Part shown: in pieces, positions 24,287-42,343 of the stretch | Layout of the letters: every line of letters starts with the position of its first letter | How positions within the stretch are numbered: the stretch's first letter is position 1 | Assembly: GCA_963773605.1 (NCBI GenBank) | Contig: CAVZBT010000012.1 | Location: 780,865-844,864 of the forward strand | DNA: 64,000 bases | Direction of reading: 5' to 3' | Origin: an uncultured Acidobacteriota bacterium | Lineage (GTDB): Bacteria > Acidobacteriota > UBA6911 | Position numbers and translations under genes: made by a program | The notes under the pieces: model-generated | Seen by the model: the letters and a program-made list of their open reading frames with translations, nothing else | Databases searched by the model: none | What the model was told of the DNA's origin: nothing

Positions 24287-26158
24287 TCAGCCTCGCTTGC
24301 CGGCCTGTGTCGGCTCAGCGAGGGCGCGCCGGATTTCCTGCAGGCTGGGGGAGATGCGGCCCAGGGCCTCGCCTACCGAGGCGAAGTAAGCGCCGTAAAC
24401 GGACTGGATGCTCGCGGCCGGAGGCTCGGGCGTCTGCGTCAAACGCGTGCGGCCGCGCAGAAACGAGACGTTGCCCATCTGATTGAAGGCGTCCAGCAGT
24501 GACGCCAGCTGCGGGGCCGTAGAGTAGATCGACTGCTTGATCTTTTCGAAGGCCCCGAGCAACGCGACGGGGGAACCGGTCGGCGTCTGCCGCGCGAGCG
24601 CCAGCCCCTCGTTCAGGGCCTGTGCCAGGCGCGTCGATTCCGCGTCGAGGAGATCGACCGTGTCGCGTTTCACCGGGCCTGCCCGCCTCGCAGCCGCTTC
24701 ATACAACGTCCGCACCCGGCCGACCAGGGCCGGGTCGCGCGAGCAATGCCTGTGCAGCGCCTCGCGCAGGCTCAAAATCTCCACACCCTCCCGCAGGATG
24801 CCCCCTTCGGTCGCATTGATGAAGCGGGTCCCGGGGTGCGTCCCGATCTCTTTGACCATCCAATTCCAGTACGCGGCCAGCTTGTCCGTGGTTTCGACCG
24901 GATGGCCGAAGAGGTCCTCCATGACGACGATCTTGTGCCCCTCTCTCAGTCGCTCCCACCGGCTTTTCCACTCCTGCGGGTTGGATACTCCGGCGAACCA
25001 TTCCGCCTCGGTGTGCAGGCCCGTGCAATAGGTCCTGCCCTCGCTGTGCGCAAGATCCTGGCCTGCGAAAATGACCGGGTCGCACCCGAGGTGCAAAGCA
25101 AAATCCAGGGCCATCGTCGCCACCGACCCCCATGCTTTAAGGCAGCCTTTATCGGCAAGGATGGCCGAAAGCGCCCGCAACGAAGAATCCCGAAACGTGC
25201 AGGTCACCGTCCTGCCCGGAAACTCAGCGAAGACCGCGGGATAGGCCGTGGCTTCGGCGACCAGCAGCGCGCGACGGGTCACTGCGCCTTTGATGTGGAG
25301 AAAGTTCCGGTGGGCCGGGTCCGCGGTGAGAACGAAGTGCGGCTCGATGCCCGCCGCCAGCAGGGGTTTCAAAGCCGTGTCGGTCGCGAGGATGAGGACC
25401 TGCCCCTCCAGGCCGCGTATTTCGTGGATGTTCTTGTCCAGCGACGGACCGGCCGAGACGATCACCGCCGGCTCCCTGGTGAACGCCCCGGCGAACCCCG
25501 AAACGCCTGGGCAGGCAAGCGCCGGCCGGAGGTTCTCCGTGAAATTCCGCAGGAACTCGAGCGACCGGGCGACCAGCGTGTTGATATCGGTCAGGATCTG
25601 AAACGTCCCGCTCCGGATGGTTTCGGCAGCCGCCTTGAACAACCCCGGCGCCTGAGCGATCGAAGGGGCGTGCATGATGAACGTGCACTTCTCCGCCTTC
25701 ACAGGATCAAAGAACTGTCGCCATTGTTCTCCGAGGTCGGGGCCGGACGGAGGCCACGCCAAGTGCAGTTGCGGCAACGAGAGGACGCCCGCCATATCCC
25801 GGGCTTCGAATGCAGCCCTGAGGATCTGGAGATTGGATTCCACCACGAAATAACCGACACTCCGGCCGCAGTTTCTTTCGAGCAGCGCGTCGAGCACATA
25901 CCCGAGTCCGAACCCGAGCAACACATAGCAGTCGCCGGCGGAATATTCCTGTTCCGCGAGCAACGCCCGGGCCTCCTTCACCGGGTCATACCGGCTGTGC
26001 AGCAGGATCGTCGAAGATGGGCCCGCCCAACGGGCGGTTGGCGCTCCGCTGGCCGACGGAAGGACTTCGATCGGAGCCGGACTCGTGCACGACAACAGCC
26101 GGGCGAGCGCGGGCTGGCGCCGCGACAGCAGATCCAGGTTCGCGTTCAAATAGTCCAA
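24287..26158 (-). CDS. Maf-like (motility-associated-factor) DUF115 family glycosyltransferase (6-hydroxymethylpterin diphosphokinase MptE-like fold)
   Basis: Central region REPAVIVSAGPSLDKNIHEIRGLEGQVLILATDTALKPLLAAGIEPHFVLTADP is the hallmark of PF01973 (Maf/DUF115). The 623-aa size and TPR-like flanks are typical of flagellin/pilin nonulosonic-acid transferases. Confidence 0.7.
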   Translation of the reverse strand: MDYLNANLDLLSRRQPALARLLSCTSPAPIEVLPSASGAPTARWAGPSSTILLHSRYDPVKEARALLAEQEYSAGDCYVLLGFGLGYVLDALLERNCGRSVGYFVVESNLQILRAAFEARDMAGVLSLPQLHLAWPPSGPDLGEQWRQFFDPVKAEKCTFIMHAPSIAQAPGLFKAAAETIRSGTFQILTDINTLVARSLEFLRNFTENLRPALACPGVSGFAGAFTREPAVIVSAGPSLDKNIHEIRGLEGQVLILATDTALKPLLAAGIEPHFVLTADPAHRNFLHIKGAVTRRALLVAEATAYPAVFAEFPGRTVTCTFRDSSLRALSAILADKGCLKAWGSVATMALDFALHLGCDPVIFAGQDLAHSEGRTYCTGLHTEAEWFAGVSNPQEWKSRWERLREGHKIVVMEDLFGHPVETTDKLAAYWNWMVKEIGTHPGTRFINATEGGILREGVEILSLREALHRHCSRDPALVGRVRTLYEAAARRAGPVKRDTVDLLDAESTRLAQALNEGLALARQTPTGSPVALLGAFEKIKQSIYSTAPQLASLLDAFNQMGNVSFLRGRTRLTQTPEPPAASIQSVYGAYFASVGEALGRISPSLQEIRRALAEPTQAGKRG

Positions 26159-26353
26159 GGCAGCCCCCGAAAAAAGAACGAACGTACTGCGCGCGACACA
26201 TCTTACAACCAGTGAGTGAATTCCCGACGGATTCCGTGACCGGCCCCTGCAGCTCGGGTGAGCAAACCTTAAAGCCTGCAGTCGCTTCCGACGATGAGCT
26301 GGTTGTGGCTGGCCCGGTCAGCCGGTGATGTACCGGGTTGAACCATTCACTGG

Positions 26354-27091
26354 ATGAAACCGATGCGAATCCGGGCCCCACGAAGCCTCTACAGTCCCGC
26401 GCCGAGACTCAATCAGCTGCGTATCCTGGAGCAGATTGCCGCCGACCACGGCATCACGCAATCCGAACTGGCCCAGCGGTGCTCCCTTTCTGTGGCGATG
26501 GTTAACAACTACATGAAGGAACTGTGCGCCCGCGGCCTGCTGGAATACCGCCGTCGGACGGCGAAAACCATTTCCTACCATGTGACGCCGGGCGGCCGGC
26601 AAAGCGCCGAGGCAACCCAGAACGAGCTGCTGCGCGAGAGCATAGCATCGTTCGCGGACACGAAGGACTGGGTGCGGAAAATCATCATGGGCCAGGCTCG
26701 CCGCAAACTTTATCGGGCGGTCTTGTACGGGAGCGGGGTCCTGGCCGAGATTGCTTTCCACGCGCTGGAATCGGCCCGGGTGAGTATCGTCGGTGTGTGC
26801 AGCGGCGACCCGGCGGAAATCGGGAAGGAGTGGTGCGGTCGTGAAATGTCGAGTCCCGCGCAAATCCGCTACCTGGCTCCGGACGCAGTGGTGATCGCGC
26901 TGGAAGAGGGCGCCGACCCCGTCTGGCGGGCGCTGACTTACCTGGCCCGCTACGACATCGACCTGATACGGACAGACCGCGTCCCCGCCTGCCTCCAGGT
27001 CGACGACCCCGAACTTGCCGGGTCCAGCGCGACACTCGCGGGACGCGCAGCGCATCCATCGGACACCGGAACGCTTGCAGGTGACAGATGA
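26354..27091 (+). CDS. winged-helix (MarR/IclR-like) transcriptional regulator fused to a C-terminal Rossmann-like module
   Basis: N-terminal wHTH (LNQLRILEQIAADHGITQSELAQRCSLSVAMVNNYMKELCARGLLEY). C-terminal about 90 aa (RKLYRAVLYGSGVLAEIAFHALESARVSIVGVCSGD...YDIDLIR) has a GxGxxA dinucleotide-binding-like motif. Transcribed divergently from the Maf-like gene. Its stop overlaps the GT4 start (ATGA). Confidence 0.65.
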   Translation: MKPMRIRAPRSLYSPAPRLNQLRILEQIAADHGITQSELAQRCSLSVAMVNNYMKELCARGLLEYRRRTAKTISYHVTPGGRQSAEATQNELLRESIASFADTKDWVRKIIMGQARRKLYRAVLYGSGVLAEIAFHALESARVSIVGVCSGDPAEIGKEWCGREMSSPAQIRYLAPDAVVIALEEGADPVWRALTYLARYDIDLIRTDRVPACLQVDDPELAGSSATLAGRAAHPSDTGTLAGDR

Positions 27092-28473
27092 CGGACTTAG
27101 AGAAAAAGGTGCTCTATATCGCCCACGCGCATCCGGCCTTCTCGCGCGGGGGCGGTGAGCTCGCCGCGTATTACCTCTACCAGGCCATGAAACTGCATGG
27201 GCACTACCGGCCATTCCTGCTGGCGAGGTTCGCCGACCCGTCATGCCAGGTCCAGCATCCGGGCTCGCGCCTGCTAGGCTGGGAGAAAGACGCCGCGACG
27301 CAACTGCTGGTGAGCAACAGCTCCAACTACGATTACTTCTACCATACCAAGCTGGACGCTAAGCTCGCCGAGGCGGACATGTATGCCGACGTGCGCGAGT
27401 TCCTGCTGGCGCTCAAACCCGACGTCGTGCATTTCCAGCACTTCATGCACATGGGCGTGGATCTGATATCGTACGTCAAGAAGCTGCTGCCGGAAGCACG
27501 GGTCCTGCTGACCCTGCACGAGTATGGCGCCATCTGTGCGCACGACGGTTCCATGCTGAAAACAGACCGCAGACAGCTGTGCCGTCGCGCGTCCACCCTG
27601 GACTGCTGCCGGTGCTTCCCACGGCGAAAACCCCGCGAGTTTTTTCTGCGCGAGCGCCTGATCAAGTCCAACTTCTCGGCCGTCGACCTGTTTCATGCCC
27701 CGAGCGAGTTCCTCAAGGAGCGTTACGTCGAATGGGGTGTCGCCCCCGAGCGCATCGTGGTCATGGACCATGGGCGTCCCGCCTGGGCCGCGACAAAACG
27801 CTCCGCGGGTCCTGCGGCGGGCCAGCCTTTCAGGGTGGCGTTTTTCGGCCAGATGGTCTTCCACAAGGGCTGGGACGTATTCCTGCAGGCCGCCGGCGAG
27901 TACGCGCGGTTACGGTCACAGACCGCCCCCGGCGGGCACGATTTGCCGGAACTCCATTTCAGCCTTCACGGGAACCGCCACCTCCCGGAGGAACTGTGCG
28001 GCCGGCTCGACGCTCTCCTGGAGGCCACACGCAGCGTGGTGCACGACCACGGCCCGTACGAGATGGATGGCATGCAGGATCTGCTCTCACGTGTGGACTG
28101 CGTGGTCGTCCCGTCCATCTGGTGGGAAAACTCGCCGCTGGTGATCCAGGAAGCCTTCATGGCGGGGCTGCCGGTCATTTGTTCCAACATAGGGGGAATG
28201 GCGGAGAAGGTGCAGGACCGGGTTAACGGGCTGCATTTCGCGGTGGGCGACCATTTCGACCTCCTCGACCGGATACTGGAACTGGCGGGGTCAGCGGAGC
28301 TCTATCGCCGCCTTGTGCAAGGCATCCCCGAAATCCTGCCCGACCGGGAGATGGCCCAACGGTTCAATTCCATCTATGACGGCTTGCTGCAGGGTGCCCA
28401 GCCGGCGCAGCCGCGGCACGGAGCGCAGGGGAGAAGGCCGGATCCCACCCGCTCCCTGGCCGCCGTCGAATAG
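27088..28473 (+). CDS. glycosyltransferase family 4 (GT-B fold, group 1), copy A
   Basis: C-terminal GT4 signature VVPSIWWENSPLVIQEAFMAGLPVICSNIGGMAEKVQDRVNGLHF (EX7E-type). Contains a Cys cluster LCRRASTLDCCRCFP. Confidence 0.85.
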   Translation: MTDLEKKVLYIAHAHPAFSRGGGELAAYYLYQAMKLHGHYRPFLLARFADPSCQVQHPGSRLLGWEKDAATQLLVSNSSNYDYFYHTKLDAKLAEADMYADVREFLLALKPDVVHFQHFMHMGVDLISYVKKLLPEARVLLTLHEYGAICAHDGSMLKTDRRQLCRRASTLDCCRCFPRRKPREFFLRERLIKSNFSAVDLFHAPSEFLKERYVEWGVAPERIVVMDHGRPAWAATKRSAGPAAGQPFRVAFFGQMVFHKGWDVFLQAAGEYARLRSQTAPGGHDLPELHFSLHGNRHLPEELCGRLDALLEATRSVVHDHGPYEMDGMQDLLSRVDCVVVPSIWWENSPLVIQEAFMAGLPVICSNIGGMAEKVQDRVNGLHFAVGDHFDLLDRILELAGSAELYRRLVQGIPEILPDREMAQRFNSIYDGLLQGAQPAQPRHGAQGRRPDPTRSLAAVE

Positions 28474-28479
28474 CCGATT

Positions 28480-29781
28480 ATGAAGAGAAAAGTGCTCTAC
28501 GTCGCGCACGGACATCCGGCATTCTCTCCGGGGGGAGGGGAACTGGCCGCCGCGCACCTGCATCAGGCGATGAAGGCCACTGCCGGCTATGAGCCCCACC
28601 TGTTGGCCAGGGTCGACGATGCCGACGGCCGTTTCCGCCACTCCGGCGCGCCGCTGATCGGGTATCAGCGGGACGACTCCACCCACCTCATTGCGAGCAA
28701 CAGCGGCCACTACGACTACTTCTTCCACACCAAGATCGATTCCCGCCTTGCGGAGGCGGACATGTTCGCCTCATTTCGCGAGTTCCTCCTTGCGCTCCAA
28801 CCGGACGTGGTGCACTTCCAACACTTCATCCACCTCGGTGCGGACCTGATGTGCTATGCCCGGTCCCTGCTCCCGCACGCGAAAATCGTCCTCACGCTGC
28901 ACGAATACGAGGCCATCTGCGCCAACCAGGGTCTGATGCTCACGACAGACGGACGACGGTGCCGCCGCGCATCGACACTGGAGTGCTGCCGTTGCTTCCC
29001 GCACCGCAAGCCGCGAGAGTTCTTCCTGCGGGAGCGCCTGATCAAATCCAACTTCGCGGTCGTCGACCGGTTCATCGCACCCAGCCATTTCCTGAAGACC
29101 CGCTACGTGGAGTGGGGGATCGCTCCTGGGCGCATCCTGGTGATGGACAACGGGCGACCGGTCTGGCGCGGGCGGGAGCGCCCGCCCAGGCGGCTGGGGC
29201 AGCTGTTTCGACCCGCCTTCTTCGGGCAAGTCGTCGCGCACAAAGGCTGCGACGTCTTCCTCCGGGCCGCCGAGGAATACCTCCAATCTCAGTCGCGCCC
29301 CGGCCGGGAGCTGCCCCAGGTCCGCTTTGGCCTCTACGGGGCACGACACTGGATGTCGGGATCGCCGGCAGAAGAGCTCGACCGCCTGATCGAGCGGACG
29401 CGCGGCGTGGTGCATCATCACGGCGCCTACGACATGGACTGCATGCCGGACCTGCTGAGCGGTGTCGATTGCGTCGTGCTTCCCTCGCTCTGGTGGGAAA
29501 ACTCCCCGCTGGTGATCCAGGAAGCGTTCATGGCGGGACTGCCGGTCGTCTGTTCAAACATCGGCGGCATGGCGGAGAAGGTGACCGACGGCGTCAACGG
29601 CCTGCACTTCGCCGTCGGCGATCATTTCGATCTGCTGCGGAGGATCCTCGAACTCGCGGCCTCTCCGGAGCTCTACGGCCGGCTCGTAACGGGCATCCCC
29701 GGAATTCTCTCCGCGGGGGAGATGGCCGGCCGGATCACGACACTCTACGACGAACTGCTCGAAGGCAACCCAGCGTCATGA
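28480..29781 (+). CDS. glycosyltransferase family 4, copy B (tandem paralog of 27088-28473, about 65% aa identity by eye)
   Basis: Same architecture and motifs (VLPSLWWENSPLVIQEAFMAGLPVVCSNIGGMAEKVTDGVNGLHF, RCRRASTLECCRCFP). Its stop overlaps the start of the next gene (ATGA at 29778-29781). Confidence 0.85.
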   Translation: MKRKVLYVAHGHPAFSPGGGELAAAHLHQAMKATAGYEPHLLARVDDADGRFRHSGAPLIGYQRDDSTHLIASNSGHYDYFFHTKIDSRLAEADMFASFREFLLALQPDVVHFQHFIHLGADLMCYARSLLPHAKIVLTLHEYEAICANQGLMLTTDGRRCRRASTLECCRCFPHRKPREFFLRERLIKSNFAVVDRFIAPSHFLKTRYVEWGIAPGRILVMDNGRPVWRGRERPPRRLGQLFRPAFFGQVVAHKGCDVFLRAAEEYLQSQSRPGRELPQVRFGLYGARHWMSGSPAEELDRLIERTRGVVHHHGAYDMDCMPDLLSGVDCVVLPSLWWENSPLVIQEAFMAGLPVVCSNIGGMAEKVTDGVNGLHFAVGDHFDLLRRILELAASPELYGRLVTGIPGILSAGEMAGRITTLYDELLEGNPAS

Positions 29782-32700
29782 CCATGAATAGCACGATCGG
29801 GCACCAGTACATCACCGACGCAAGAGACTACCGGCATCTGGCGGACCGAAAGCGCTACAAGGCCCTGTACGACGACGTAGGCACGCTCGAGGCCAACCGC
29901 CAGGTCCGCCGGCGCGAAGAGCGGATGAAATATTTCAACCCGAGGCCGGCGGCCCGCATCCTGGAACTGGGCGCGCACAACGGGCCGAACCTGATCCACT
30001 ATGCCCGGAAGGGGCATGTGGTTCACGGCGTGGAATTATCCGACACCCTCGCCGAAACGTTCGTGTCCGCCCTCGCCGGTGAACCTCCGGACGTGCAGGC
30101 CCGGATCCGCATGTACCGGGGATGGATAGCGGACTTCAAACCCGAGGAGTCTTACGACCACGTGCTCTGTGCCGAGATACTCGAGCACGTCACCGACCCG
30201 GTGGAAGTCCTGAAGGTCGCGCGCGCGGCCCTCACCGCTTCGGGCACGCTCTACCTCTCGGGCCCCTCCCGCCACTGGGGGAACAACACCTACGTCCGGG
30301 GCGTGCCGGCAGCAGACCTGGAACGCTGGCTGAAGTCCGCCCGCCTCACGTACTCGGAGATGTGGGAGGAAGAAGGACGGACATTCTGCATCGCCCATGC
30401 AACCGATTTGCGAGTGATTGGCCTGACGAGGGTCCGGAACGAGGCGGCCATCATCCGGGAAACATTGGATCACATGGCGCGGTTCTGCAACGGCGGCATT
30501 GTCGTGTACGACGACGTCTCGTCGGACTCGACCCCCGAGATCTGCCGCGCGCACCCTGCAGTCCTCGACGTCGTGCGGGGAGAACTCTGGGACGGCAATA
30601 GGGGTCGGGCAGAATACGCCGGCCGGGCGGTCCTCCTTGCCCGTGGAAAGCGAGAAGCCGGGCCGCGCGATTGGTTCGTTTACATGGACGCGGATGAAAG
30701 AATCGAGTTCGACTGGAGCAGTCTCCTGCTCTGCCCTGACGACGTCGTGGGCGTGCGGATGAAGCTATTCGACTACTACATCACGGAAGAGGACGTGCAG
30801 AGATCCTACGCGGAACGCAGGTGGCTAGGACCCGAGTACCGGCCCATTCTGATGGCATTCCGCAACCTGCCGTCGCTTTCCTACAGCCGTCCGGACCAGC
30901 GCCAAGCGGACCTCGGGCCCGACGGCACGATCCTGGATGCCGGCCACGTCAAGCACTACGGCAAGGCGGTTTCCGTCGCGCAGTGGGAGGACGCCTGCCG
31001 GTACTACAGCGGTTACTTTGCCGGCTACGCGGCGAAATGGAACGCGCGCAAGGGAAAGGCCGTCCACACGCACTCGGACTTCGGCAACCCCTTGATCAGG
31101 TGGGAGGAGAAGGAAGCCAAGGGCATCCCGCTGACGCCCGAGATCGAGGCGGCCGCGGCGCAGAAGACGCTCGCCGAGCCGCGGCCCGGTCTGAGGGTGC
31201 TCCTGACGAATCATCAACTGCTGGACTTCACAGGCTCCGAGCTCTTCACCTATACCGTCGCCGATTTCCTGAGGAGAGAGGGGCACGAAGTCGTCGTCTA
31301 CTCCCGGTACGTCGACAAGATCGGCCGCCGGCTCCGCGGCATCGGCGTGCGGGTCGTGCAGGACCTGGACGAAATCGCCGGCGAGCGGTTCGACATTGCC
31401 CACGTGCATCACAATCTCAACGCGATGGAAATCCGGCACCGCTTCCCACAATTGCCGATCATCATGGTCTCCCATGGCGTTCTTCCCTTCCTGGAGCAAC
31501 CGCCGGCCGTCGACCTGAGGATCGCCCGGTACCTCGCGGTGAGTGAGGAGGTCCGAGAGAATCTCCTGTCAAGGGGCGTGCCGGCCGGAACTGTTTCGGT
31601 TTTCAGAAACGTCGTGGACTCACAGCGCTTCAGCCCCACTTGCCCGATCCGGGAGAAGCCGGAGCGCGCGTTAGTCCTGAGTTCACGGCTCGACTCCGGG
31701 CGGGAAAGGACCGTTCGGGAAGCGTTCTCGGCCCTGGGCATCCTGGGACGCTTTGTGGGGGGGCGCTTCGGAGAGGCTGACCCGTCGCTGTTGCCCTCGT
31801 ACATCAACGAGGCCGATATCGTGTTTTCCCTCGGAAGAGGCGCAGTCGAGGCCATGCTGTGCGGCCGCATCCCGGTGATATACGACTATCTCGGCGCAGA
31901 CGGGCTCGTGACCCCGGGAAACCTCGGGGACCTGATGGCGCGCAATTTCTCGGGCCGGACGCACCGCACGGAATACACCCCGGCACAACTGGCCGATGAG
32001 ATCCGGCAATACCGAAGAGAGTATGGATGGCAGCTCCGCACCCTTGCGTTGGAGCACTTCGACGCCGGGACGAGGATGCCGGGGTTGATCCGGATCTACC
32101 ACGAGGCGCTTTCCGTCGCCGTCCCCGAAATGTCTACGCGAGACAAAGAACAACTGTCGGCCTTCGTCGAAACCGTCCGTGAGACCCGGAATTACTCCTA
32201 CAGCCAGGTGATCCGGAAGCACGGCCGGGATCTCCAGGCCCTATCCCGCACGACCATACCGGCCCCCGGGCTGCCCACGGGCGCAGAGGCGGCGCGATCG
32301 GCAGCGGAGCTCAGGGATCTGCTCTGGCTCGACGGCACGGAATCCGGCGCACACCACGAGCTCGGACTGTTGCACTATGCGCGGGGCAGCAAACACGACG
32401 CGCTGGAGTGTTTCCGAAAGGCGGTGGAGCTTGACCGTGAAGATGCCGCGGCCAGCAAGGACCTGGCCCTGCTTTATCTGGAAATGTGGCCGGCGCTCGC
32501 GCGGGAAAGAGATGAGCGCACGGAGCAGCTGCAACGGCAGGAATGCCGGATAAAGGAACTCGAGGCCCACAATTCGAACCTCCGGCAAATCGTGGAGTGC
32601 ACCATGCCGCGGATGCGCACCGAGCTCTACGAGGAGAAGATGTTGAGGCTGGCGAGCCGTATCCGGCGGCGCGGCATTCGCGACGTGCTCGTCTACGGCG

Positions 32701-34051: not shown

Positions 34052-35200
34052 ATGAGCGCTGAACCGTTGACGATTTTTCACATGATTGCCCAGCTGCGGC
34101 TCGGCGCGGGCCGGGTGGTGGCCGACGCCGCGATCGAGCAGGCGCGCGGAAGGGGGCACCGGGTGACGGTCTGTGTGAGCGCCGACGCGGAGGCGCACTG
34201 GCGCACGGATCCGAGACTCGCCGCCGAACTGGAGCGCCACAACATCGAGGTCCACACCCTCGGGGACTTCTTCCATCGCCGGCCCGATCAGCTTCGCCGC
34301 GCCGCGGAGCAACTGCGGGGCGCGCTGTCGAGGGACGGCGGCGCGGTCGTAGTGCATGCGCACACGGCCATGGCCGCAGCCGTCGGGCACTGGGCGCAGC
34401 CCGACGCCCTGGTTGCGACCTGTCACGGATGGGGCGCCGGCAGGCCTCAGGACATGGACCTGCAGGACGCCCTGGCTTACCAGCTGTGCGACGCGGTCCT
34501 CACCTACTCCCGCCACTGGGCAGCCCGGCTCAGTCAGGACCTGGGAGTGCGCTCTCCGAGGCTGATCCCGATGGGCCTCGACCTCGAACGGTTCCCGGAA
34601 TCGCGCATGACGCGCCGCGCTCAATCGACGCCATTCCGGGTGGTCACGGTCTGCGAGTTGACGGCGCGCAAGGGCGTCGACCTGCTTCTCGATGCCATGC
34701 CGGCAGTCTGGAGCCGCCTCCCGGACGCGGAGCTGCACATCATGGGTACCGGGGACCTGGCCGCCGAGCTGCGGTTCAGGGCGGCGGACCTTGACCCCGG
34801 TGCGAAGCGCATCGTTTTCTACGGCGCCGTCGCGAACCCGTATGCGCGGTTGGCGGAATTCGACCTCTTCGCCCTCGCCAGCAGGTCCGATAACCTGCCG
34901 GTCGTTCTGCTGGAAGCCATGCTGGCCGGGCTGCCGATTGTGGCCGCGGGGGTGGGCGGGGTTCCCGATCTCCTCTGCGCCGCAGGGTGCGGCGCCGTCG
35001 TTCCCTCGGGCTCCCCCCAGGCGCTCGCGGACGAAATCCTCGCCATGGCCCGGCTCGACCAGTCTAAGCGGGTCGAACAGGGATACAGCGGCGAGCAGTA
35101 TGCCCGCCGCGAATTCGACGCGCGCAGGGCAACCGCGTGCCTGGAGCAAATCTATCTCGAGGCGCTCGACAAGAAGCGCACCGAGGCTTCGCGCGGATAA
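34052..35200 (+). CDS. glycosyltransferase family 4
   Basis: GT-B fold with C-terminal FALASRSDNLPVVLLEAMLAGLPIVAAGVGGVPDLL motif. No membrane segments. Confidence 0.85.
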   Translation: MSAEPLTIFHMIAQLRLGAGRVVADAAIEQARGRGHRVTVCVSADAEAHWRTDPRLAAELERHNIEVHTLGDFFHRRPDQLRRAAEQLRGALSRDGGAVVVHAHTAMAAAVGHWAQPDALVATCHGWGAGRPQDMDLQDALAYQLCDAVLTYSRHWAARLSQDLGVRSPRLIPMGLDLERFPESRMTRRAQSTPFRVVTVCELTARKGVDLLLDAMPAVWSRLPDAELHIMGTGDLAAELRFRAADLDPGAKRIVFYGAVANPYARLAEFDLFALASRSDNLPVVLLEAMLAGLPIVAAGVGGVPDLLCAAGCGAVVPSGSPQALADEILAMARLDQSKRVEQGYSGEQYARREFDARRATACLEQIYLEALDKKRTEASRG

Positions 35201-35207: not shown

Positions 35208-37670
35208 ATGGGCATGCGGCCACCCCACATCATTCAGACAATCCCACTCCCCCGCTCAGGCGCTGCGCAGCCCGGCCCGCTCCACACGATCGTTTCGGAC
35301 GCCGCGGATAACCTTTACTACTCGGACGAAATCAACCACAGCATCGTCTCGCTGGACGACAAACGACAGGTCCGCTGGCAGAGGACGGCCTGCGGCAGCG
35401 CCCCAGGTGAGTTTCAATACCCGCGCGGCCTCTCCATCGGCTGGGTTGAACGGGACGGGCAGACGGTGCAGTGCGTGGCCATATGCGACGCCTGGAACCG
35501 TCGCGTGCAATTCCTGGATTTGTCTGGGAACCCGGTCCTGTCGTGGACGGGTGCGGGACAAAAACCGTTCGGGGAGGTCGCCGACGTCAGGTTCATCGCC
35601 GGCGACTTCAATCAAGGCCGCGCCGGCAAACCGATGAGCTTCTGGTTTGTGCTCGACCGGGGCAATCACCGTCTCTGCGCGATGTCCCTCGGCGGACAGC
35701 TTCTGTTTGAAATCGGGCGCGGTTTCCCTCCACATATGGGAACCCGCTGGGCGGTCCCGGGTCTGTTTCTCGAAAGCGAGCTGGAGCACGCCGGTCTGGT
35801 AAAAGACTTCCCTGCCCTCGATTTCACCTTCTACCCGGAGCGCATACTCGGGGATTCGGAGAACGCTCTCTACGTGTGGGAACCTTCCCCGCGGATCCTC
35901 AGGCAGGTCCTGCTCGGGAATTTGCTCCCGGTGAGGATCGCCGCGGAGAGACCGCTCGACTGGGTGTCCGCCGATGAATCCGGGTTGATCGGCTGGGACA
36001 GGCCACGCCGCCTCCTGTTCTACGGCTGGACCGGGGAACTCGAGCAGACGCTGGAAATCGCCGGCAACCCGATCGGGACCAGCAACTCGCCCGAGGGGTT
36101 CTGGCTCCAATGCGGCAGACAGATCGAACGGTGGGCCCGCGACGGCTTCGATCGGATCCGTTGTGAGCCGCGATTCCTCGATATCCGGGCTCCGCTGCTG
36201 CGGACCGCGCAGGCCGAGCTCGAGCGGTTCGATGGTGTCGCGTCGAGCACAGCGATCCGGCAGTGGACGGCCGTTGTGGACGACGGCCTGGCCCTGGCCG
36301 ACGAAGTGCTGACGCCGGAGCGGGACGAGGCCGCGCCGGACCTGAACCACACCCTGGCCGCGCTATGCGACCTGCCGCACAAACTGGGAGCCGCCGAGCA
36401 GCGGGTGCACGAGACCCTTCATGGTTTCTGCCTCGGCACCCTCGAGTGTCATCTGTCCGGAAGCCCGAACGGTGCCGGCAGCAACTCGATCGCCGGGGCG
36501 CGCAAACGATGGGCGCCGCTTTTTGAGCCCATCCGCACCAGGTTCGCGCCCCTGGCCGCGCGGTTGGACGACCTCCGGGCGCGCCGGCTCGGCATTGCCG
36601 CCGAAAGCCTGTCCCATCGACGCTGGGCGGATTCGTGGTGCCAGGCGGCCGGGGCCTGCGAAGAGCATCTCCAGCGCACCTTGGAATGGATCTACCGGTG
36701 GTCCGGCGTGGTCGAGGGGACCCAGGAACTGTTGCCTCTGCCGTGGATCCTGCCTCTGCCCGAGACACTGCGAGACCAGGCGCGCGCGCCAGGCCACGCG
36801 GCGTCCCGCAGGTCCCGCTGGAGCTACACACCGAAGCCGTCACGCCTTCGGGAAGTCCACAGGATGCCACTGGGCGCCGCTCCCTCGCCGCTGCATCCTC
36901 ACGGCCTCGCCTTCCTCGACGAGCGCCTGTTTGTGAGCCTCAACGGCGGCCACGAGGTCGTCGAGCTTCACCCGGCAGGCAACGTGACCCGCCGCATTGG
37001 AACGGGGGGAAGCGCCGCCGGCGCACTACGAAGGCCGGCGGGAATCGTGTTCGACGGTCGTGGGCGGCTCTGGGTGGTCGATTCCGAGAACCGGCGCGTG
37101 GTGTTATTGGACCTGGAACGCGGCTCCGCCGACCGCATCCCATCGGGCGCCGAATCGCCCTGGCTGAACTGCCACCCGTTCGGGATCGGCAGGATGGCCG
37201 ACGGATCGATGCTCGTGAGCGACTCGGGCAACCGCCTTGTGCGGGTCCGGCTCGACGGCGCCTGGGACATCCACACCGGGATTCAAGGAACGGGGTTAGG
37301 AGAGTTCCGGAATCCGACCCAGGTCAGCCCCGGGCTGGGGGGCACTCTCTGGATCGTGGACCGAAATAATCACCGCGTCCAGAAGCTTGACTCGGAAGGG
37401 CGATGCCTCCAGGCGATCGGCCGTTGTGGCCTGGGCCACGGGGAGCTGTTCACACCGGAGAGCGTCGCCCAGTTTGAAGACGGCGTCGTCGCCGTCGCGC
37501 AGAACCGCTGGAACCGCTGCATCAAGCTGTTCACGCCCGAGGGAGTTGAATTCGACAGGACGGTGCTCACCTACTTCGCGGAAGGCATGCGGGTCCACGG
37601 CGGCCGGCTGTACGTGGCGGCCATGGACCAGGATGCGATCGTCGTCTACGAACGCGAACAGGGCACTTGA
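35208..37670 (+). CDS. NHL-repeat (six-bladed beta-propeller) protein with central helical domain, cytoplasmic
   Basis: N-terminal NHL-like repeats (LYYSDEINHSIVSLD..., FVLDRGNHRLCAMSLGGQLL) and C-terminal NHL repeats (LWVVDSENRRVVLLD, LVSDSGNRLVRVRLDG, LWIVDRNNHRVQKLDSEG, AVAQNRWNRCIKLF) flank a roughly 330-aa alpha-helical region. No signal peptide. Start at the internal Met 35208 (MGMRPP). Confidence 0.75.
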   Translation: MGMRPPHIIQTIPLPRSGAAQPGPLHTIVSDAADNLYYSDEINHSIVSLDDKRQVRWQRTACGSAPGEFQYPRGLSIGWVERDGQTVQCVAICDAWNRRVQFLDLSGNPVLSWTGAGQKPFGEVADVRFIAGDFNQGRAGKPMSFWFVLDRGNHRLCAMSLGGQLLFEIGRGFPPHMGTRWAVPGLFLESELEHAGLVKDFPALDFTFYPERILGDSENALYVWEPSPRILRQVLLGNLLPVRIAAERPLDWVSADESGLIGWDRPRRLLFYGWTGELEQTLEIAGNPIGTSNSPEGFWLQCGRQIERWARDGFDRIRCEPRFLDIRAPLLRTAQAELERFDGVASSTAIRQWTAVVDDGLALADEVLTPERDEAAPDLNHTLAALCDLPHKLGAAEQRVHETLHGFCLGTLECHLSGSPNGAGSNSIAGARKRWAPLFEPIRTRFAPLAARLDDLRARRLGIAAESLSHRRWADSWCQAAGACEEHLQRTLEWIYRWSGVVEGTQELLPLPWILPLPETLRDQARAPGHAASRRSRWSYTPKPSRLREVHRMPLGAAPSPLHPHGLAFLDERLFVSLNGGHEVVELHPAGNVTRRIGTGGSAAGALRRPAGIVFDGRGRLWVVDSENRRVVLLDLERGSADRIPSGAESPWLNCHPFGIGRMADGSMLVSDSGNRLVRVRLDGAWDIHTGIQGTGLGEFRNPTQVSPGLGGTLWIVDRNNHRVQKLDSEGRCLQAIGRCGLGHGELFTPESVAQFEDGVVAVAQNRWNRCIKLFTPEGVEFDRTVLTYFAEGMRVHGGRLYVAAMDQDAIVVYEREQGT

Positions 37671-37717: not shown

Positions 37718-39430
37718 TTATGCGATCAGTTCGGAGATGACCGCGCCCCACTTCCGCTCGTGCCGCCGGGCGTTGATGAAATGCAGGGAGCGGCGCACGT
37801 CGGAGGCCCACGACGCCCCCTCGAGGTGATAGAGCTCAACCCGGTTGTCGCAGAGTGTCCTCCTGCCCTGCTCCCTGAACCGCAGGCAGATGTCCGAGTC
37901 CTCGTAGTCGCCGCGGACAAAGCCGCTGTCGAGCATCCCGAGCGCCCGGTACTCCGCAGTCCTGAACATCATGCAGGCGCCGGTGACGGCGTGCACTTCG
38001 GTCAGCCCGTGGCATGGGACCAAGGCCGGGCTCATTCCCTTGTACGGGTGGTAGTTCACCAACAGATCCTGGAGGGCGGGATCGCGGCGCCAGGTCAGCC
38101 CGGCGTGCTGTAGCGACTCATCAGGGTACAGGAGCCGCGCTCCGACGATCCCGGCGGAGGGGTCGGCTTCCAGGTCCGAAATCAGGGTCTGCAGCCACTC
38201 CCTGGACTTCGGGAAGACGTCGGAGTTGAGCAGGAGGAGGTAGGTCGCGCGGGCAGCGGTTGCGCCGATGTTGCACGCCATGCTGAAACCGCACGTGCGA
38301 TTGGTGACCAGAAGCCGGACGGGCACGCCATACAAATCGTACAACCGGTGCAGCCGGACCTTGAACCGCTCCGGGTCGTCTTCCTCATCGTCGACATGGT
38401 GCTGGACCAGTATCAGTTCCTGCTGTTTGAGGAACGGATCGGCGGAGAAGTCCGAAAGCTGGTGCCGGATCAAATCGTAGGCCCGGAAGAAAGGCACCAC
38501 GATGCTGACCTTGGGATGCCGCGGCGCGTCGCCGAACTGGTACGCGGCAATCACCTTCACGCCGCTGTTCGCCTCGGCGTTCAAGGCTGCAATCACGTCG
38601 AGGAAGCGCTCTTCGGCGCCCATGCTCCGCTCGACGGATCGGCGGGCCGGGCCGCAGCAACGATTGAAGGCGACGACGAATTCGTCCAGCAGCGCTGCGG
38701 TGTCGGATGAGGGGTCGAGGTCGAGCGTACGCTCGCACCCGTCGGGATAACGGATGCGCAGCGCCGTTGAGTGGAATCGGGGAGGAACGAAGATCGCAAC
38801 CCCGGTCTTGTCGTCGGGCGCGCCGGCATCCGGGCCCGGATACCGAAACACGGCGGCTTCAACCGGCGCGGAGCCGGCATCACCGAGCAACGTCAGTCTA
38901 TCCGCGGGAACGCCGCCATCGGGGAGCCGGCCGACAATCGCCAGCGCGCCGTCATCGCTGCGGAAGCAGCTAATTGCCTGTTGATGGCAAACCGAGCCGG
39001 CCACAGCCATCGCCCCGCGCGCCGGCCAGGGAGAGAGGCTGCGCAGGCTCAGGTCGGGAGTCATGACATAGGCCGGAACCTCGCCGCACCCCCGGGCAAA
39101 ACCGACGAGCTGCTCGAATCCCTTGCCGTCCTTATTCCCCAGCGGCACCACGACGGCCGCGCACTTGTCCCAGTCCAGTTTCCCCTCGAGTTGCGAGCGC
39201 ATATCCGCTTCCAGGAACCGCTGCCCGCGATAATGTATGGTCTCGGCCCACGAGGGGTAGCGCTGGAGGTTGCCGGCGTTTGCTTCGAAAACCACCACAC
39301 GGTGGCGGGGGAACTGTGTGCGGATTTTGCCCAGGCATTCCGTGAAGGCATCCCACGGGACGCACCTCGGAACCAGGACGGCGGACGAATCGGCGGCAGG
39401 CATCAACACCTCCGGGGAAAAGGGCTTCAA
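37718..39430 (-). CDS. glycosyltransferase family 2 with about 300-aa N-terminal domain of unknown function
   Basis: C-terminal GT-A: VSIVVPFF...ACNIGATAARATYLLLLNSDVFP...DYEDSDICLR. The N-terminal half has no recognisable motifs. Its start overlaps the rfbD stop. Confidence 0.8.
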   Translation of the reverse strand: MKPFSPEVLMPAADSSAVLVPRCVPWDAFTECLGKIRTQFPRHRVVVFEANAGNLQRYPSWAETIHYRGQRFLEADMRSQLEGKLDWDKCAAVVVPLGNKDGKGFEQLVGFARGCGEVPAYVMTPDLSLRSLSPWPARGAMAVAGSVCHQQAISCFRSDDGALAIVGRLPDGGVPADRLTLLGDAGSAPVEAAVFRYPGPDAGAPDDKTGVAIFVPPRFHSTALRIRYPDGCERTLDLDPSSDTAALLDEFVVAFNRCCGPARRSVERSMGAEERFLDVIAALNAEANSGVKVIAAYQFGDAPRHPKVSIVVPFFRAYDLIRHQLSDFSADPFLKQQELILVQHHVDDEEDDPERFKVRLHRLYDLYGVPVRLLVTNRTCGFSMACNIGATAARATYLLLLNSDVFPKSREWLQTLISDLEADPSAGIVGARLLYPDESLQHAGLTWRRDPALQDLLVNYHPYKGMSPALVPCHGLTEVHAVTGACMMFRTAEYRALGMLDSGFVRGDYEDSDICLRFREQGRRTLCDNRVELYHLEGASWASDVRRSLHFINARRHERKWGAVISELIA

Positions 39431-40344
39431 GAGTGAGAACGGCCGGCCAGAGAAGCCTCGCGACGGGCGTCCGGGCTGCGCCCGGCCTCCAGGTACTCCT
39501 GCAGCGCGTGCCGCCAGGGCGGCATGCGGTCAATGCCCAGCATGGCGAGGTTGCGGTTTTCCAGAACCGAAAACGAGGGACGGGCCGCGACGGCTCCCGA
39601 TTGGGATGTCGACTGACGGCCGAGGTCGGGCGCCAGACCCGCCAACTCGAAAATCGCTGCCGCGAACTCGAACCACGAGCATGCCCCCTGGCAGGTCGCG
39701 TGGTAGGTGCCGTAATGGCCGAGCCGACACAGAGAGGCGATCTGGCGCGCCAGCGACGCTGTCGGCGTCGGCGTCAGGGTTTGATCGTCCACCACCCGGA
39801 TCGGCTTGCCCGAACGGGCCAGCCGCAGCATCAGTTCGACGAAGTTGCTCCCTTTGCCGGAGGGCCCGGCCGCCCCATAGAGCCCGCTGGTGCGCACGAT
39901 GAAATGCCTGCGCCACAAGGAGCGGACCGCCATCTCGCCGGCGGCCTTGCTGATACCGTACATGTTGATCGGATCGACCGGGTCGGACTCGTAGTACGGG
40001 CCCCCTTTCCGTCCAGAGAACACGTAATCCGTGCTGAGGTGGACAAGGACCGCATCGAGTTGCCGGCACACCACGGCCAGGTTTCTCGGGCCGAGCACGT
40101 TGACACGGAAAGCGCACCCGGGAGCGGCTTCGATGTCGTCCACGCGGTGACAGGCCGAGGTATTGACCACCACCCCGGGCGCGAGCGGAAACAGCGCCGC
40201 CCGGACCGACTCGATCTCGGAGACCTCGATATCGGCGTGAGTGAGCGCGCGCGGCCCGGCACCGGCCGGGTCAGCCGGCCATAAACGCATCAGGTCGGCC
40301 CCCAGCTGCCCATTCGCGCCGACGATCGCCACCGGCCTGCCCAT
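39427..40344 (-). CDS. rfbD: dTDP-4-dehydrorhamnose reductase
   Basis: MGRPVAIVGANGQLG (GxxGxxG), HLSTDYVFSG, and YGISKAAGE (YxxxK), the RmlD signature set. Confidence 0.85.
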   Translation of the reverse strand: MGRPVAIVGANGQLGADLMRLWPADPAGAGPRALTHADIEVSEIESVRAALFPLAPGVVVNTSACHRVDDIEAAPGCAFRVNVLGPRNLAVVCRQLDAVLVHLSTDYVFSGRKGGPYYESDPVDPINMYGISKAAGEMAVRSLWRRHFIVRTSGLYGAAGPSGKGSNFVELMLRLARSGKPIRVVDDQTLTPTPTASLARQIASLCRLGHYGTYHATCQGACSWFEFAAAIFELAGLAPDLGRQSTSQSGAVAARPSFSVLENRNLAMLGIDRMPPWRHALQEYLEAGRSPDARREASLAGRSHS

Positions 40345-40420: not shown

Positions 40421-41493
40421 TCAGGCGCTCTTTGCGAGGTTTGGCAACTCCCTCGCGTCGAAGACGGCCCCTGTTATCTGAACGATCCTGTTGGCCTCTT
40501 CCAGCAGGCGCATCCAATCGATGTTGTAATACCGGGGATTTTCGAAATCGGTGTAGCGCGCGCGCCGGATTTCCTGGACCAGGTTGCGCACCGATTCCTC
40601 GACAGAGACCTTAGGCCTGAAGTTCAGGACGCGGTAGAGTTTCTCGCCCGTGACCCGGTAATTGCGCACGCCCTTGTAGGCGTAGTCCGCTTTGATCTCG
40701 ACCTCGATGCCGAGCTCGCGCAGCACTTCGCGGATGCGCAGGGCAAGCTCGCTGATCCGCAGATTGCCATAGACCAGGTTGAAGACCTGCCCGTTGACAG
40801 CCTCGGGCTCCGCCTGGATCAAAGCAATGTAGGCACGGGCGGCGTCACGAATCTCGACCAGCGGCCGCCACATCTCTCCACCGTAGTGCAGCCGCATTTC
40901 TCCCTTGCTCATGGCGTCCTTCACGAACGTGTTGACCACGAGGTCATAGCGCATCCGGGGGAGAAGCCGAACAGCGTGCCCTTGCGCAGAACCGAGACGC
41001 AGAACTTCTCGGATGCCATCGGGAGCAGCTCCTTCTCGGCCGCGAACTTGGAGCTCGAGTACGCGGCCCGCGGATTGACCGATGCGGTCTCGTCCAGAAT
41101 CAGGTCCTGGTTGTGGTCCAGGATGCCGAAGTCATAGATAGAACACGAGGATGCGTAAATGTACCTGCGGACCCCCCGCTGCATGCACGCCCTGGCCAGC
41201 GCCACGCTGGCCGTCGTGTTCATCGCGTAGTTCGCGGCGGGATTGTACTCGGCGGTGGGATCGTTGGAGAGCCCGGCGATGTTCACTACCGCCTCGACAT
41301 TGTCGAGAGCGGCTGCGGGCGGGGTTCGCATGTCCGCCACGACGACCTCGACGCGGTCGCGGATGTCGGCCAGCCCCTGGTCCCCGAAATACATGCGGTC
41401 CAGGATCCGCACCGCGTAGCCCCTCTCGAGCAATTCATGAGCCAGCACCGATCCGATGTAACCTGCGCCCCCGACGAGCAGAATCTTTTTCAT
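40421..41493 (-). pseudogene. NAD-dependent epimerase/dehydratase family protein (UDP-sugar 4-epimerase-like), interrupted by a frameshift near 40950-40960 (G5 run)
   Basis: N-terminal part (ORF 40921-41592; true start MKKILLVGGAGYIGS at 41493 with GGAGGA RBS) has GxxGxxG and YSSSKFAAE. The C-terminal part continues in another frame (ORF 40421-40954: RYDLVVNTFVKDA...). The junction FGFSP|RMRYDL is restored by adding one base in the ccccc/ggggg run. Confidence 0.75.
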
Positions 41494-41665
41494 GAATGCC
41501 CGCTCCTCCGTTCGGTGAATGAAAACCGGGGCCCTGACGCAGCCCTTGCTCTTCATCGGCAGGCCGGCGCACGTACTTGACGAATTACTCATTCAGGAAA
41601 TGAAGTCCTTGCAGGGTGCATCGTGGTGGCCCGACGCAGGCCGGGAGACCGGGCATATCGGCACG

Positions 41666-42343
41666 ATGACGGAATCTGATAGTATGGCGCGTCTCGATTA
41701 TCACGGAGGGGCGGCGGTGAGAATCCTGGATGTGAAGAACCTGGTTGTCCCGGAGATCCGAGTGATCCGATTCGCGCGTTTTCAGGATCACCGGGGTTAC
41801 TTCGCGGAGCACTTCCGCAGGAGCGATTTCGACGGCCTGCCCTTCATGAAGGGCGTGCGGTTCCGCCAGGCCAACGAGAGCTTCTCCCGTCCGGGAACCA
41901 TCCGGGGTCTGCACTTCCAGTGGAATCCCTACATGGGGAAGCTGGTGCGGACACTGAGCGGGCGCATGGTCGACCTGGTCCTGGACATCCGCCGGGGGTC
42001 GCCGACGTTTGCGAAAATTCTCGCCTATGATATGCCCGCGACGCCGGAGCGTGAGTTCGCGGAATGGATCTGGGTGCCGCCGGGGTTCGCGCACGGGAAC
42101 TTTTTCACCGAGCAGACCCTGATCGAGTACTTCTGTTCCGGGGAATACAGCCCCGGATGCGAAGCAGGCATATCGCCCATGGCGCCCGACATCGACTGGT
42201 CCCTGTGCGACCCGCAGCTGAAGGAGCTTTTCGACGGCATACGCACCGGCGGTGGTCTGATGACCGAGAAAGACAGAAACGGGTACGCCCTGGCCTCATG
42301 GGCGCTGTCCGCCGACTCGCAGCGTTTCCTCTACCAAGGTTGA
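41666..42343 (+). CDS. rfbC: dTDP-4-dehydrorhamnose 3,5-epimerase
   Basis: Cupin-fold RmlC motifs: FQDHRGYFAEHF, RGLHFQ, VPPGFAHGF-like (VPPGFAHGNF). Start uncertain (41666 or 41684). Confidence 0.85.
   Translation: MTESDSMARLDYHGGAAVRILDVKNLVVPEIRVIRFARFQDHRGYFAEHFRRSDFDGLPFMKGVRFRQANESFSRPGTIRGLHFQWNPYMGKLVRTLSGRMVDLVLDIRRGSPTFAKILAYDMPATPEREFAEWIWVPPGFAHGNFFTEQTLIEYFCSGEYSPGCEAGISPMAPDIDWSLCDPQLKELFDGIRTGGGLMTEKDRNGYALASWALSADSQRFLYQG

Follow-up and report, generated by a model that had tools for sequence, protein, structure and literature searches.

Can a block of glycosylation genes that encodes no membrane protein be assigned to a pathway, and on which acceptor would it act? The block lies at positions 24287-42343 of a 64-kb stretch of DNA (64,000 nucleotides, referred to as the window) from an uncultured Acidobacteriota bacterium (GenBank assembly GCA_963773605.1, contig CAVZBT010000012.1). 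It comprises a Maf family glycosyltransferase gene (maf, g1), a divergent operon of seven genes (g2-g8) that contains most of the other glycosyltransferases (GT), a further GT gene (g9) and three genes for sugar-nucleotide enzymes (g10-g12). We conclude, with a probability of about 0.68, that the block is a flagellin O-glycosylation island situated away from the flagellar genes. The acceptor is most simply a flagellin encoded elsewhere, because the Maf is orthologous to the Mafs of flagellin loci and because the GT operon carries a flagellin-type, sigma-28-like promoter. A preliminary description had read the block either as a cytoplasmic protein-glycosylation system or as the source of a soluble methylated glycoconjugate, and had matched it to no described system. 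Our data support protein-directed glycosylation in the cytoplasm and not a polysaccharide locus of the classical undecaprenyl-phosphate type. The glycoconjugate gained no support, and a described match does exist, namely the Maf-based flagellin glycosylation islands (PMC7874193, PMC5109656).

The Maf protein is orthologous to Mafs encoded in flagellin loci

The g1 protein has three domains: N-terminal, catalytic (MptE-like/DUF115) and C-terminal helical. Its match to PF01973 (MAF_flag10/DUF115) covers residues 205-373 and scored 124 bits against a cut-off of 34.6, while the Maf N-terminal family PF20157 reached 17.3 bits, below its cut-off of 23.5; many orthologs carry a precomputed PF20157 match. 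Compared by sequence with the PDB, g1 matched only the Magnetospirillum Maf 5MU5 (E = 2.7e-7, phmmer alignment over residues 65-279). When an AlphaFold model of g1 (11 orthologs in the alignment, predicted local distance difference test score (pLDDT) 73) was compared with the PDB by Foldseek, 5MU5 was again the sole match with E < 1e-3 (5.8e-16, full-length). The identity in the structural alignment was 17%, and the TM-score was only ~0.44 because the domain orientations differ in this medium-confidence model. The DUF115/Maf homology proposed in the preliminary description thus survived profile (hidden Markov model), PDB-sequence and fold comparisons.

More than 1000 homologs of g1 were found, the best of which are acidobacterial (50-78% identity). 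The nearest relatives in the homolog search were P0002 (78%), P0003 (64%) and P0004 (62%). In a neighbour-joining tree these three and the window Maf were monophyletic (61-76% identity in that alignment), and sister to the clade of P0005.

We asked in which gene neighborhoods the orthologs occur. In a one-genome-per-species scan with a tblastn panel of flagellar markers, such markers lay beside maf in 18 of 18 acidobacterial loci (48-56% identity), and the same was true of L001 (identical to L011, which is among the 18), L088 and L089. A metagenome scan with the window Maf gave three loci, all outside the window's clade, of which two had an ordinary flagellar context. In a complete 6.9-Mb genome, the ortholog (~53% identity) is encoded between two flagellin genes and fliD-fliS, with genes for a NeuB-type synthase, an ATP-grasp protein, an aminotransferase and a CMP-transferase-type protein on one side and for FliW, CsrA, a third flagellin, FlgK, FlgN and FlgM on the other. 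P0005 (~60% identity) is encoded between flagellin and FliD, and NeuB, a CMP-transferase-type gene (CTP_transf_3) and MotAB are nearby. The Mafs of acidobacterial flagellin loci (e.g. L001/OY761556 and L082) are of the same family as g1 and align with it over the full length at 48-60% identity. Their genes sit between fliC and fliD together with NeuB-type, ATP-grasp and CMP-transferase-type genes, whereas the window maf lacks these neighbors and is divergent from the g2 operon.

This divergent arrangement is common to all four members of the clade (the window and P0002-P0004), in which maf is followed across the intergenic region by a winged-helix gene and then by GT2/GT4 genes. The island beside P0003 continues with RmlD, an intact 357-aa short-chain dehydrogenase/reductase (SDR), RmlC and an AXE1-like esterase, and the same esterase flanks the window island. 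The window and L002 are collinear, with 79% DNA identity over 12 kb. A gene-neighborhood comparison across Acidobacteria had been proposed in the preliminary description; it showed that the g2-led block recurs and that flagellin genes lie beside Maf orthologs, though not beside those of the four clade members. These arrangements are most simply explained if, in the common ancestor of the four clade members, maf was transferred out of the flagellin locus and into the g2 island.

Maf enzymes normally use CMP-nonulosonates as donors. Could the Maf of this clade have been retargeted to another acceptor (a pilin, an adhesin, an S-layer or cytoplasmic protein), to a donor other than a nonulosonate (e.g. 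the 6-deoxy-L-hexose of g10-g12), or to both? Its position would agree with this, as in 4/4 clade members maf lies outside a flagellin locus, beside GT/rml genes and with no NeuB-type or CMP-transferase gene near. The branches of the clade are also somewhat longer than those of the sister clade, and other Maf-like proteins (e.g. in L076) are encoded among genes for GTs, RmlC and methyltransferases, with flagellar genes absent from the vicinity. Against retargeting, every domain of the window Maf, including the C-terminal helical one, diverges no more than it does among flagellar-locus Mafs. The identities per domain (N-terminal, MptE, middle and C-helical) were 58, 67, 59 and 37% between the window Maf and flagellar-locus Mafs and 60, 69, 52 and 38% among the latter. 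Because these divergences are equal, a change of acceptor is not suggested; many residues in every domain are invariant between the window Maf and the acidobacterial flagellin-locus Mafs. Moreover, the adjacent operon retains a flagellin-type promoter and the same module occurs in a genome with a normal flagellin-Maf locus (both described below), and we consider retargeting unlikely. Had the Maf been captured by the module of g2, GTs and the NHL protein g8, and were it no longer a flagellin nonulosonic-acid transferase, with a rhamnose-type donor or a non-flagellar acceptor instead, the block would be a new cytoplasmic protein-glycosylation system in which g8 and the TPR tail of g5 are the acceptor-recognition parts. 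This, too, seems improbable to us.

A sigma-28-like promoter precedes the glycosyltransferase operon

Upstream of acidobacterial flagellin genes we found the motif (C/T)TAA(A/G/T)-N15/16-(C/G)GACGATA, mostly at a distance of ~120-180 nt from the start codon, with GCCGATA in its place at one flagellin site. The textbook sigma-28 (FliA) consensus is TAAA-N15-GCCGATAA, and by its resemblance to this consensus the flagellin motif would be of the sigma-28 type. A two-block position weight matrix (PWM) was built from 14 flagellin sites. It found held-out flagellin promoters (L001 at 8711, L005 at 7648 and 8784, L007 at 7201, L014 at 7049) and almost nothing else in the 22-kb loci.

In the window, the top PWM match on both strands was the site TAAAGCCTGCAGTCGCTTCCGACGATG upstream of g2 (18.4 bits, compared to 13.1 bits for the next independent match). 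As a control, the maxima of 30 random windows had a mean of 12.7 bits (sd 2.4) and the highest was 17.0 bits. The pattern TAAA-N14/15-CGACGAT occurs once in the window versus 0.03 expected. The same element at the same position was the top match upstream of the g2 orthologs in L002, L083, L084 and L086, and L085, the most distant g2 locus, has the canonical form TAAAG-N15-GCCGATTA. The promoter is therefore kept in five of the six g2 loci, and the sixth has the canonical variant, while the intergenic sequence around it has otherwise diverged. Judging from these sequences, expression of the g2 operon may be coupled to that of the late flagellar genes, and the TAAAG-N13-TTCCGACGATGA promoter offers a testable marker of the regulon.

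Several smaller features were seen around this promoter. A second block (…TACA.C.A.TGAGTGAAT…), ~45 nt upstream of the sigma-28-like -35 element, is common to g2 loci with and without a divergent maf and may be an operator, perhaps for g2 itself. Around the start of g2 (26351-26365), CATTCA(C/T)TGG(A/G)TGAAA-N4-ATG is kept in six loci, which fixes the g2 start at 26363 and gives a protein of 242 aa, the length of the public protein P0241; position 26354 has an alternative ATG. The GGATGA in front of g2 looks like a ribosome-binding site. A CsrA-type site at this start was considered, but some of the loci lack the GGA. Inside maf, on the coding strand (25113-25139, minus strand), there is the string TAAAG-N17-CGACGAT (0.03 expected per window), the spacer of which is one base longer than that of any flagellin promoter seen; it could be a chance occurrence or an internal promoter.

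The g2-led module occurs in other genomes, one of which also has a flagellar Maf locus

An AlphaFold2 model of g2 (pLDDT 81.5) has a winged helix, a long helix and a small Rossmann-like domain. The proteins that it resembles in fold (MarR, CggR and winged helix-turn-helix-Rossmann methyltransferases, TM-score 0.2-0.3) are too generic for a specific function or ligand to be assigned, and we regard g2 as a regulator with low certainty. About 290 homologs of g2 are detectable and nearly all are acidobacterial. We read four g2 loci at 51-64% identity (L083-L086), all of which are g2-led islands of soluble GT2/GT4 enzymes and methyltransferases; none of the four contains a maf or a membrane export gene. 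Two of the four carry an 816-aa NHL protein, and the variable content of the four islands includes acetyltransferase, aminotransferase, AsnB and radical-SAM enzymes. Orthologs of g6, g7 and g8 are present in L002 (77, 74 and 63% identity) and L084 (66, 64 and 34%), those of g6 and g7 in L085 (45 and 47%), and a full-length g8 ortholog (33%), as in L084, in L083; g6 is also present in the minimal island beside P0003.

One assembly (GCA_041501225.1) holds both L086, a g2 island (JBGQNR010000002), and L014, a flagellin-Maf-NeuB-FliD/FliS locus (JBGQNR010000008). One genome thus has a classical flagellar Maf locus plus a separate g2 island with a flagellin-type promoter.

Outside the Acidobacteria, flagellar loci of Gemmatimonadales and Glassbacteria have a g2-like gene after maf-fliS. 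Its product aligns with g2 from end to end (E = 2e-16), so that the C-terminal Rossmann-like domain is covered as well, and a protein of ~800 aa with NHL-like repeats comes next. This suggests that the Maf/g2/NHL association predates the Acidobacteria. The order in one gemmatimonadal locus (L028, 5731-18710) is FliD (1188 aa), a 201-aa open reading frame (ORF), Maf, FliS, the g2-like winged-helix/Rossmann protein, a 798-aa NHL-like protein, an NTP-transferase/CDP-alcohol phosphatidyltransferase fusion and GT9; similar loci are L023, L025-L030 and L041. We do not claim that g8 is a homolog of the 798-aa protein, as the similarity is weak and confined to the NHL repeats (E = 4e-5, single comparison). 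The GT beside csrA in acidobacterial flagellar loci was also considered as a relative of the island GTs and set aside (no tblastn match at E <= 1e-8).

The island encodes soluble proteins and lies apart from membrane machinery

Analysis of GC content at third codon positions and the ORF lists confirmed the twelve genes as real, with coordinates that agree with real genes (Table 1). Domains were assigned with Pfam and NCBIfam profile searches. The genes g2-g8 are closely packed as one operon, in which neighboring genes are separated by <=20 nt or overlap at their stop and start codons. Six genes encode seven classical GT domains, in addition to the Maf; the earlier count had been six GT domains in seven genes. 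All products are soluble, as had been stated, whereas the statement that all are enzymes does not apply to the winged-helix protein g2.

Table 1. Coordinates of the island genes and of two conserved elements in front of g2
Feature	Position	Strand	Evidence
g1, Maf family glycosyltransferase, 623 aa, TTG start	24287..26158	-	Pfam PF01973, E = 6.5e-36
Second conserved block ATCTTACAACCAGTGAGTGAATTCCCGAC	26200..26228		Partly conserved upstream of six g2 loci
Sigma-28 (FliA)-like promoter TAAAG-N13-TTCCGACGATG	26270..26296	+	PWM; ends 66 nt upstream of the g2 ATG (26363)
g2, winged-helix protein (MarR-like), first gene of the operon	26363..27091	+	Pfam HTH_24/MarR
g3, GT4 glycosyltransferase, 461 aa, soluble	27088..28473	+	Pfam Glycos_transf_1 and Glyco_trans_4_4; no transmembrane segment
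g4, GT4 glycosyltransferase, 433 aa, paralogue of g3	28480..29781	+	Pfam; no transmembrane segment
g5, multidomain enzyme, 1059 aa: methyltransferase, GT2, GT4, TPR	29778..32957	+	Pfam
g6, GT2 glycosyltransferase, 353 aa; conserved core of g2-type islands	32971..34032	+	Pfam
g7, GT4 glycosyltransferase, 382 aa; conserved core of g2-type islands	34052..35200	+	Pfam
g8, cytoplasmic NHL-repeat protein, 820 aa, last gene of the operon	35208..37670	+	Pfam NHL, NCBIfam ScyF-like
g9, 570-aa protein, GT2 domain at residues 300-550	37718..39430	-	Pfam
g10, RmlD, dTDP-4-dehydrorhamnose reductase	39427..40344	-	TIGR01214; Pfam RmlD_sub_bind, E = 1.5e-76
g11, SDR nucleotide-sugar epimerase/dehydrogenase, 357 aa after restoring one C	40421..41493	-	Rebuilt protein
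g12, RmlC-like 3,5-epimerase (cupin), N-terminal extension of ~70 aa	41519..42343	+	Pfam dTDP_sugar_isom, E = 4e-36

In the largest protein, g5, an S-adenosylmethionine-dependent methyltransferase domain (~46-211) is followed by GT2 (~220-320), the N-terminal half of GT4 (~486-617) and TPR (~848-902). The best PDB match of the methyltransferase domain is the sugar O-methyltransferase EvdMO1 (5T38), and the TPR segment matches consensus TPR proteins. We recognised neither a signal peptide nor a catalytic domain in g8, and g9 has a weak PDB match to polypeptide GalNAc-transferase 12. The first 300 residues of g9, ahead of its GT2 domain, received no domain assignment. No terminator was found at the convergent junction of g8 and g9.

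A Kyte-Doolittle scan (19 residues) found a membrane-like segment in none of the twelve products, in agreement with the preliminary description; the hydrophobic stretch of g7 is a buried core helix of the GT-B/GT4 fold. When the hydropathy of all coding-like ORFs of the window was analysed, polytopic proteins proved to be limited to MacB/FtsX permeases, Lgt, a DUF362 protein and a small protein with four transmembrane segments. The sole transporters, MacB/FtsX-HlyD at 12.7-16.5 kb, are separated from the island by unrelated genes, and the rest of the window likewise consists of unrelated genes (a TonB-type barrel, FG-GAP/ASPIC proteins, MacB-HlyD, peptidases, an NAD-glutamate dehydrogenase, Lgt and others). 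For a WbaP/WecA-type priming transferase the window contains neither a Pfam match nor a polytopic candidate, and Wzx, Wzy, Wzm/Wzt, an ABC-2 exporter and Wza are also absent from it. The preliminary description had reported such absences for the twelve genes of the block, and had added that an undecaprenyl-phosphate priming transferase and a flippase close by would speak against its reading; such genes were seen neither in the 64 kb nor in the flanks of six related islands, which contain no membrane export or priming genes. The absence of membrane machinery fits a cytoplasmic pathway (PMC4065374).

These data bear on two other readings of the block. It might be an ordinary surface-polysaccharide locus (for O-antigen, exopolysaccharide or an S-layer glycan) with its priming and export genes elsewhere and maf a neighbor by chance. 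GT4/GT2 enzymes together with RmlC/RmlD are typical of such loci, and the order methyltransferase-GT-GT in g5 recalls WbdD and WsaE, the chain-terminating or polymerising enzymes of ABC-transporter-dependent pathways. In addition, some Aeromonas flagellin islands share genes with O-antigen synthesis (PMC7874193). In contrast, seven independent islands lack a phosphoglycosyltransferase, flippase, polymerase, ABC-2 transporter and Wza around them, the maf-g2 pairing is kept in four genomes of the clade, a Maf is found with a g2-like gene in two further phyla and the operon has a sigma-28-like promoter, so that we hold a polysaccharide locus to be quite improbable. Still less can be said for a soluble or lipid-bound small-molecule glycoconjugate of natural-product type, or for an anti-phage 'conflict' system with GT4 enzymes, both of which we regard as very improbable. 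Such systems would account for the weak cross-matches of g3, g4 and g7 to PF20706 (GT4-conflict) and for the radical-SAM, AsnB and aminotransferase genes of related islands; however, the general GT4 families score far higher than PF20706, no scaffold-forming enzyme (polyketide synthase, non-ribosomal peptide synthetase or terpene synthase) is encoded, and both the orthology of the Maf and the flagellin-type promoter favor another reading. A search for defence systems with PADLOC yielded only generic winged-helix and methyltransferase matches.

The sugar-nucleotide enzymes match the rhamnose pathway only in part

Which sugar could g10-g12 provide? The g10 protein passes the NCBI equivalog cut-off for RmlD (TIGR01214, 272.5 versus 224 bits), whereas g12 stays under that for RmlC (TIGR01221, 116.6 versus 155.75 bits) though it passed in Pfam. 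The g11 protein scored 47 bits against RmlB (cut-off 365 bits) and was far below the GalE cut-off too. The best PDB match of the rebuilt g11 is 6VO6 (E = 2e-22), deposited as a putative sugar-nucleotide epimerase/dehydratase, which we take to be Cj1427; by sequence, g11 would resemble C4-dehydrogenases of the Cj1427 type more than RmlB. RmlA and RmlB were not found in the window, and the RmlABCD set is incomplete there. L-Rhamnose as the product is therefore plausible but not established. Of the rhamnose pathway proposed in the preliminary description, the RmlD is genuine, while RmlC below its equivalog cut-off, the absence of RmlA and RmlB and an SDR that is more Cj1427-like than RmlB-like do not bear it out.

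In Campylobacter jejuni, Cj1427, Cj1430 and Cj1428 remodel a sugar as C4-dehydrogenase, 3,5-epimerase and C4-reductase, respectively. The trio of g11, g12 and g10 shares this enzyme logic, which by analogy could explain the absence of RmlA and RmlB. Unlike in that system, g10 scores as a true RmlD equivalog, which makes it no less likely that dTDP-rhamnose is produced in the conventional way, by means of RmlA and RmlB from other loci of the genome.

The g11 gene is split by a frameshift, one C being short in a C-run near 40935 (40921-40954). A second gene of the window, for a large NAD-glutamate dehydrogenase (51992-56274), is split in the same way, and sister long-read assemblies (L002, L082) have many split genes; because of this, both splits are probably homopolymer errors of long-read sequencing and not pseudogenes. 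The g11 ortholog adjoining P0003 is intact (357 aa). The length of the N-terminal extension of g12 seems to be kept in a relative (263 aa, beside P0003). The divergent genes g11 and g12 are only 25 nt apart (41493-41519), which leaves no room for two promoters.

Comparison with known systems and a proposed pathway

Flagellin glycosylation islands contain many soluble GTs, methyltransferases and rml genes, and are sometimes located away from the flagellar genes (PMC7874193, PMC5109656). The polar-flagellum islands of Aeromonas group II and the Geobacillus islands resemble our island in that they combine a Maf with several soluble GTs, methyltransferases and sugar-nucleotide genes and have no membrane export. 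The Geobacillus islands contain methyltransferases and rml genes, and type V has rmlABCD (PMC5109656); the Aeromonas islands IIB and IIIB are, as in the window, away from the flagellar structural genes (PMC7874193). Unlike these, the window island has no pse/leg/neu genes in or near it and no RmlA or RmlB. Its operon opens with a winged-helix plus Rossmann protein and closes with an 820-aa NHL protein, and its host is an uncultured acidobacterium. Thus, the island shows most of the testable features of the class of Maf-type flagellin glycosylation islands; linkage to flagellin and nonulosonate genes nearby were not seen in the 64 kb, and no flagellin of the source contig was among the best 120 of 4811 matches to the flagellin of a relative.

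Two further systems are similar in their parts. The Mafs of Magnetospirillum magneticum AMB-1 (5MU5) and Shewanella oneidensis (Maf-1) have the same long three-part architecture as g1, with a C-terminal helical domain of their own. In Maf-1-type enzymes this domain binds flagellin, and the Shewanella system is bipartite and does not need GlfM (bioRxiv 10.1101/2023.12.03.569772). A GlfM-like small gene was not found in the window, where the small proteins of flagellar loci match nothing. In Caulobacter FlmG, the TPR part recognises flagellin (PMC7591256). In its architecture, g5 is similar to FlmG, as it joins GT domains to a TPR segment. It differs from FlmG in being far larger, with a methyltransferase and two GT domains and the TPR near the C-terminus.

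Maf modifies Ser/Thr residues of flagellin while the protein is still in the cytoplasm, prior to its binding by the chaperone and its type III export (PMC4065374). By this precedent, g1 would attach a linking sugar to flagellin Ser/Thr in the cytoplasm before flagellar type III export, and the donor would, as elsewhere in the family, be a CMP-activated nonulosonic acid whose biosynthetic genes lie in another part of the genome. Thereafter, the soluble GT2/GT4 enzymes g3-g7 and g9 would lengthen the linking sugar into an oligosaccharide, much as Fgi-1, a soluble GT of the Aeromonas group II islands, extends it (PMC7874193). The methyltransferase domain of g5 would methylate a sugar. An L-configured sugar would be supplied by g10-g12, L-rhamnose if RmlA and RmlB are encoded elsewhere and otherwise a related L-sugar made by C4-oxidation, 3,5-epimerisation and reduction. 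In this scheme the g2-g8 operon would be transcribed from the sigma-28-type promoter along with flagellin and would probably be regulated by g2. Recognition or retention of the acceptor may fall to g8, the NHL protein, and to the TPR tail of g5, if these act like GlfM and like the TPR of FlmG and Maf-1. Flagellin as acceptor, the identity of the sugars, the sequence of steps and what g2 and g8 do are thus inferences from these precedents, whereas gene content, solubility, Maf orthology, promoter conservation and the co-occurrence of the module with flagella in another genome were observed.

Several observations weigh against flagellin as the acceptor. Neither flagellin, which the preliminary description had not found in the window either, nor other flagellar genes, fliA or nonulosonic-acid biosynthesis genes were found in the 64-kb window, and no flagellar or nonulosonate gene is within reach of maf in P0002, P0003 or P0004. 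When 5.8 billion proteins were searched with the flagellin of the closest flagellar-locus relative, no flagellin of the source contig (1,646,296 bp) was among the best 120 of 4811 matches, and the same applied to the 405,005-bp contig of the 78% relative. When the flagellar loci were examined for relatives of the island GTs, none was detected. The g2 promoter scored 18.4 bits compared to 24.7-29.7 bits for the flagellin sites, and the g2 sites end in G and not in A. The PWM is partly circular because its training sites were selected by a regular expression, and the assignment of the motif to sigma-28 would stand or fall with its resemblance to the textbook consensus.

Acidobacteria are among the most abundant soil bacteria. 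To our knowledge, almost all work on flagellin glycosylation has concerned pathogens and a small number of model bacteria, and our literature search found no paper on it in Acidobacteria. New compared to the described islands are the conserved g2 operon of the sigma-28 type, with its winged-helix/Rossmann and NHL proteins, the fact that in Acidobacteria this operon usually lies apart from the flagellar genes, and the capture of maf by it in the window's clade. If the flagellin assignment is correct, Acidobacteria put an elaborate, probably methylated, deoxy-sugar-containing glycan on their flagella by means of a conserved sigma-28-controlled module (winged-helix/Rossmann protein, GT2, GT4, large NHL protein and methyltransferase) that is usually apart from the flagellar genes. 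A glycosylation island without membrane proteins would then be the expected signature of flagellin modification and not an anomaly, g2 and g8 would be candidate accessory factors that can be set beside GlfM and the TPR specificity factors recently reported for Maf systems, and the block would be a coherent, testable module in an under-studied phylum.

Other observations

A different island with a Maf-like protein and GTs was seen in Acidobacteria MAG-255 (L076, 1-13748). There, a 1205-aa MptE-like protein adjoins a double-GT2 protein (848 aa) and another GT2, together with a TPR protein, RmlC, a sugar C-methyltransferase and a nucleotidyltransferase, and the 13.7 kb contain no flagellar gene.

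ORFs in the 866-bp gap downstream of the window maf were rejected as genes, as GC content is flat over the three codon positions and the gap includes a tandem repeat. This repeat, directly downstream of maf (23708-24197), consists of four tandem copies (94% matches) of a palindrome-rich 125-bp unit. Since two further copies of its core lie at 9203-9239 and 9300-9336, in an unannotated region (9.1-10.3 kb), the unit behaves as a dispersed element similar to repetitive extragenic palindromes or miniature inverted-repeat transposable elements (REP/MITE-like). The array sits where the 78% relative has an NlpC/P60-SH3 gene, of which a 47-aa remnant (23586-23726) is left in the window.

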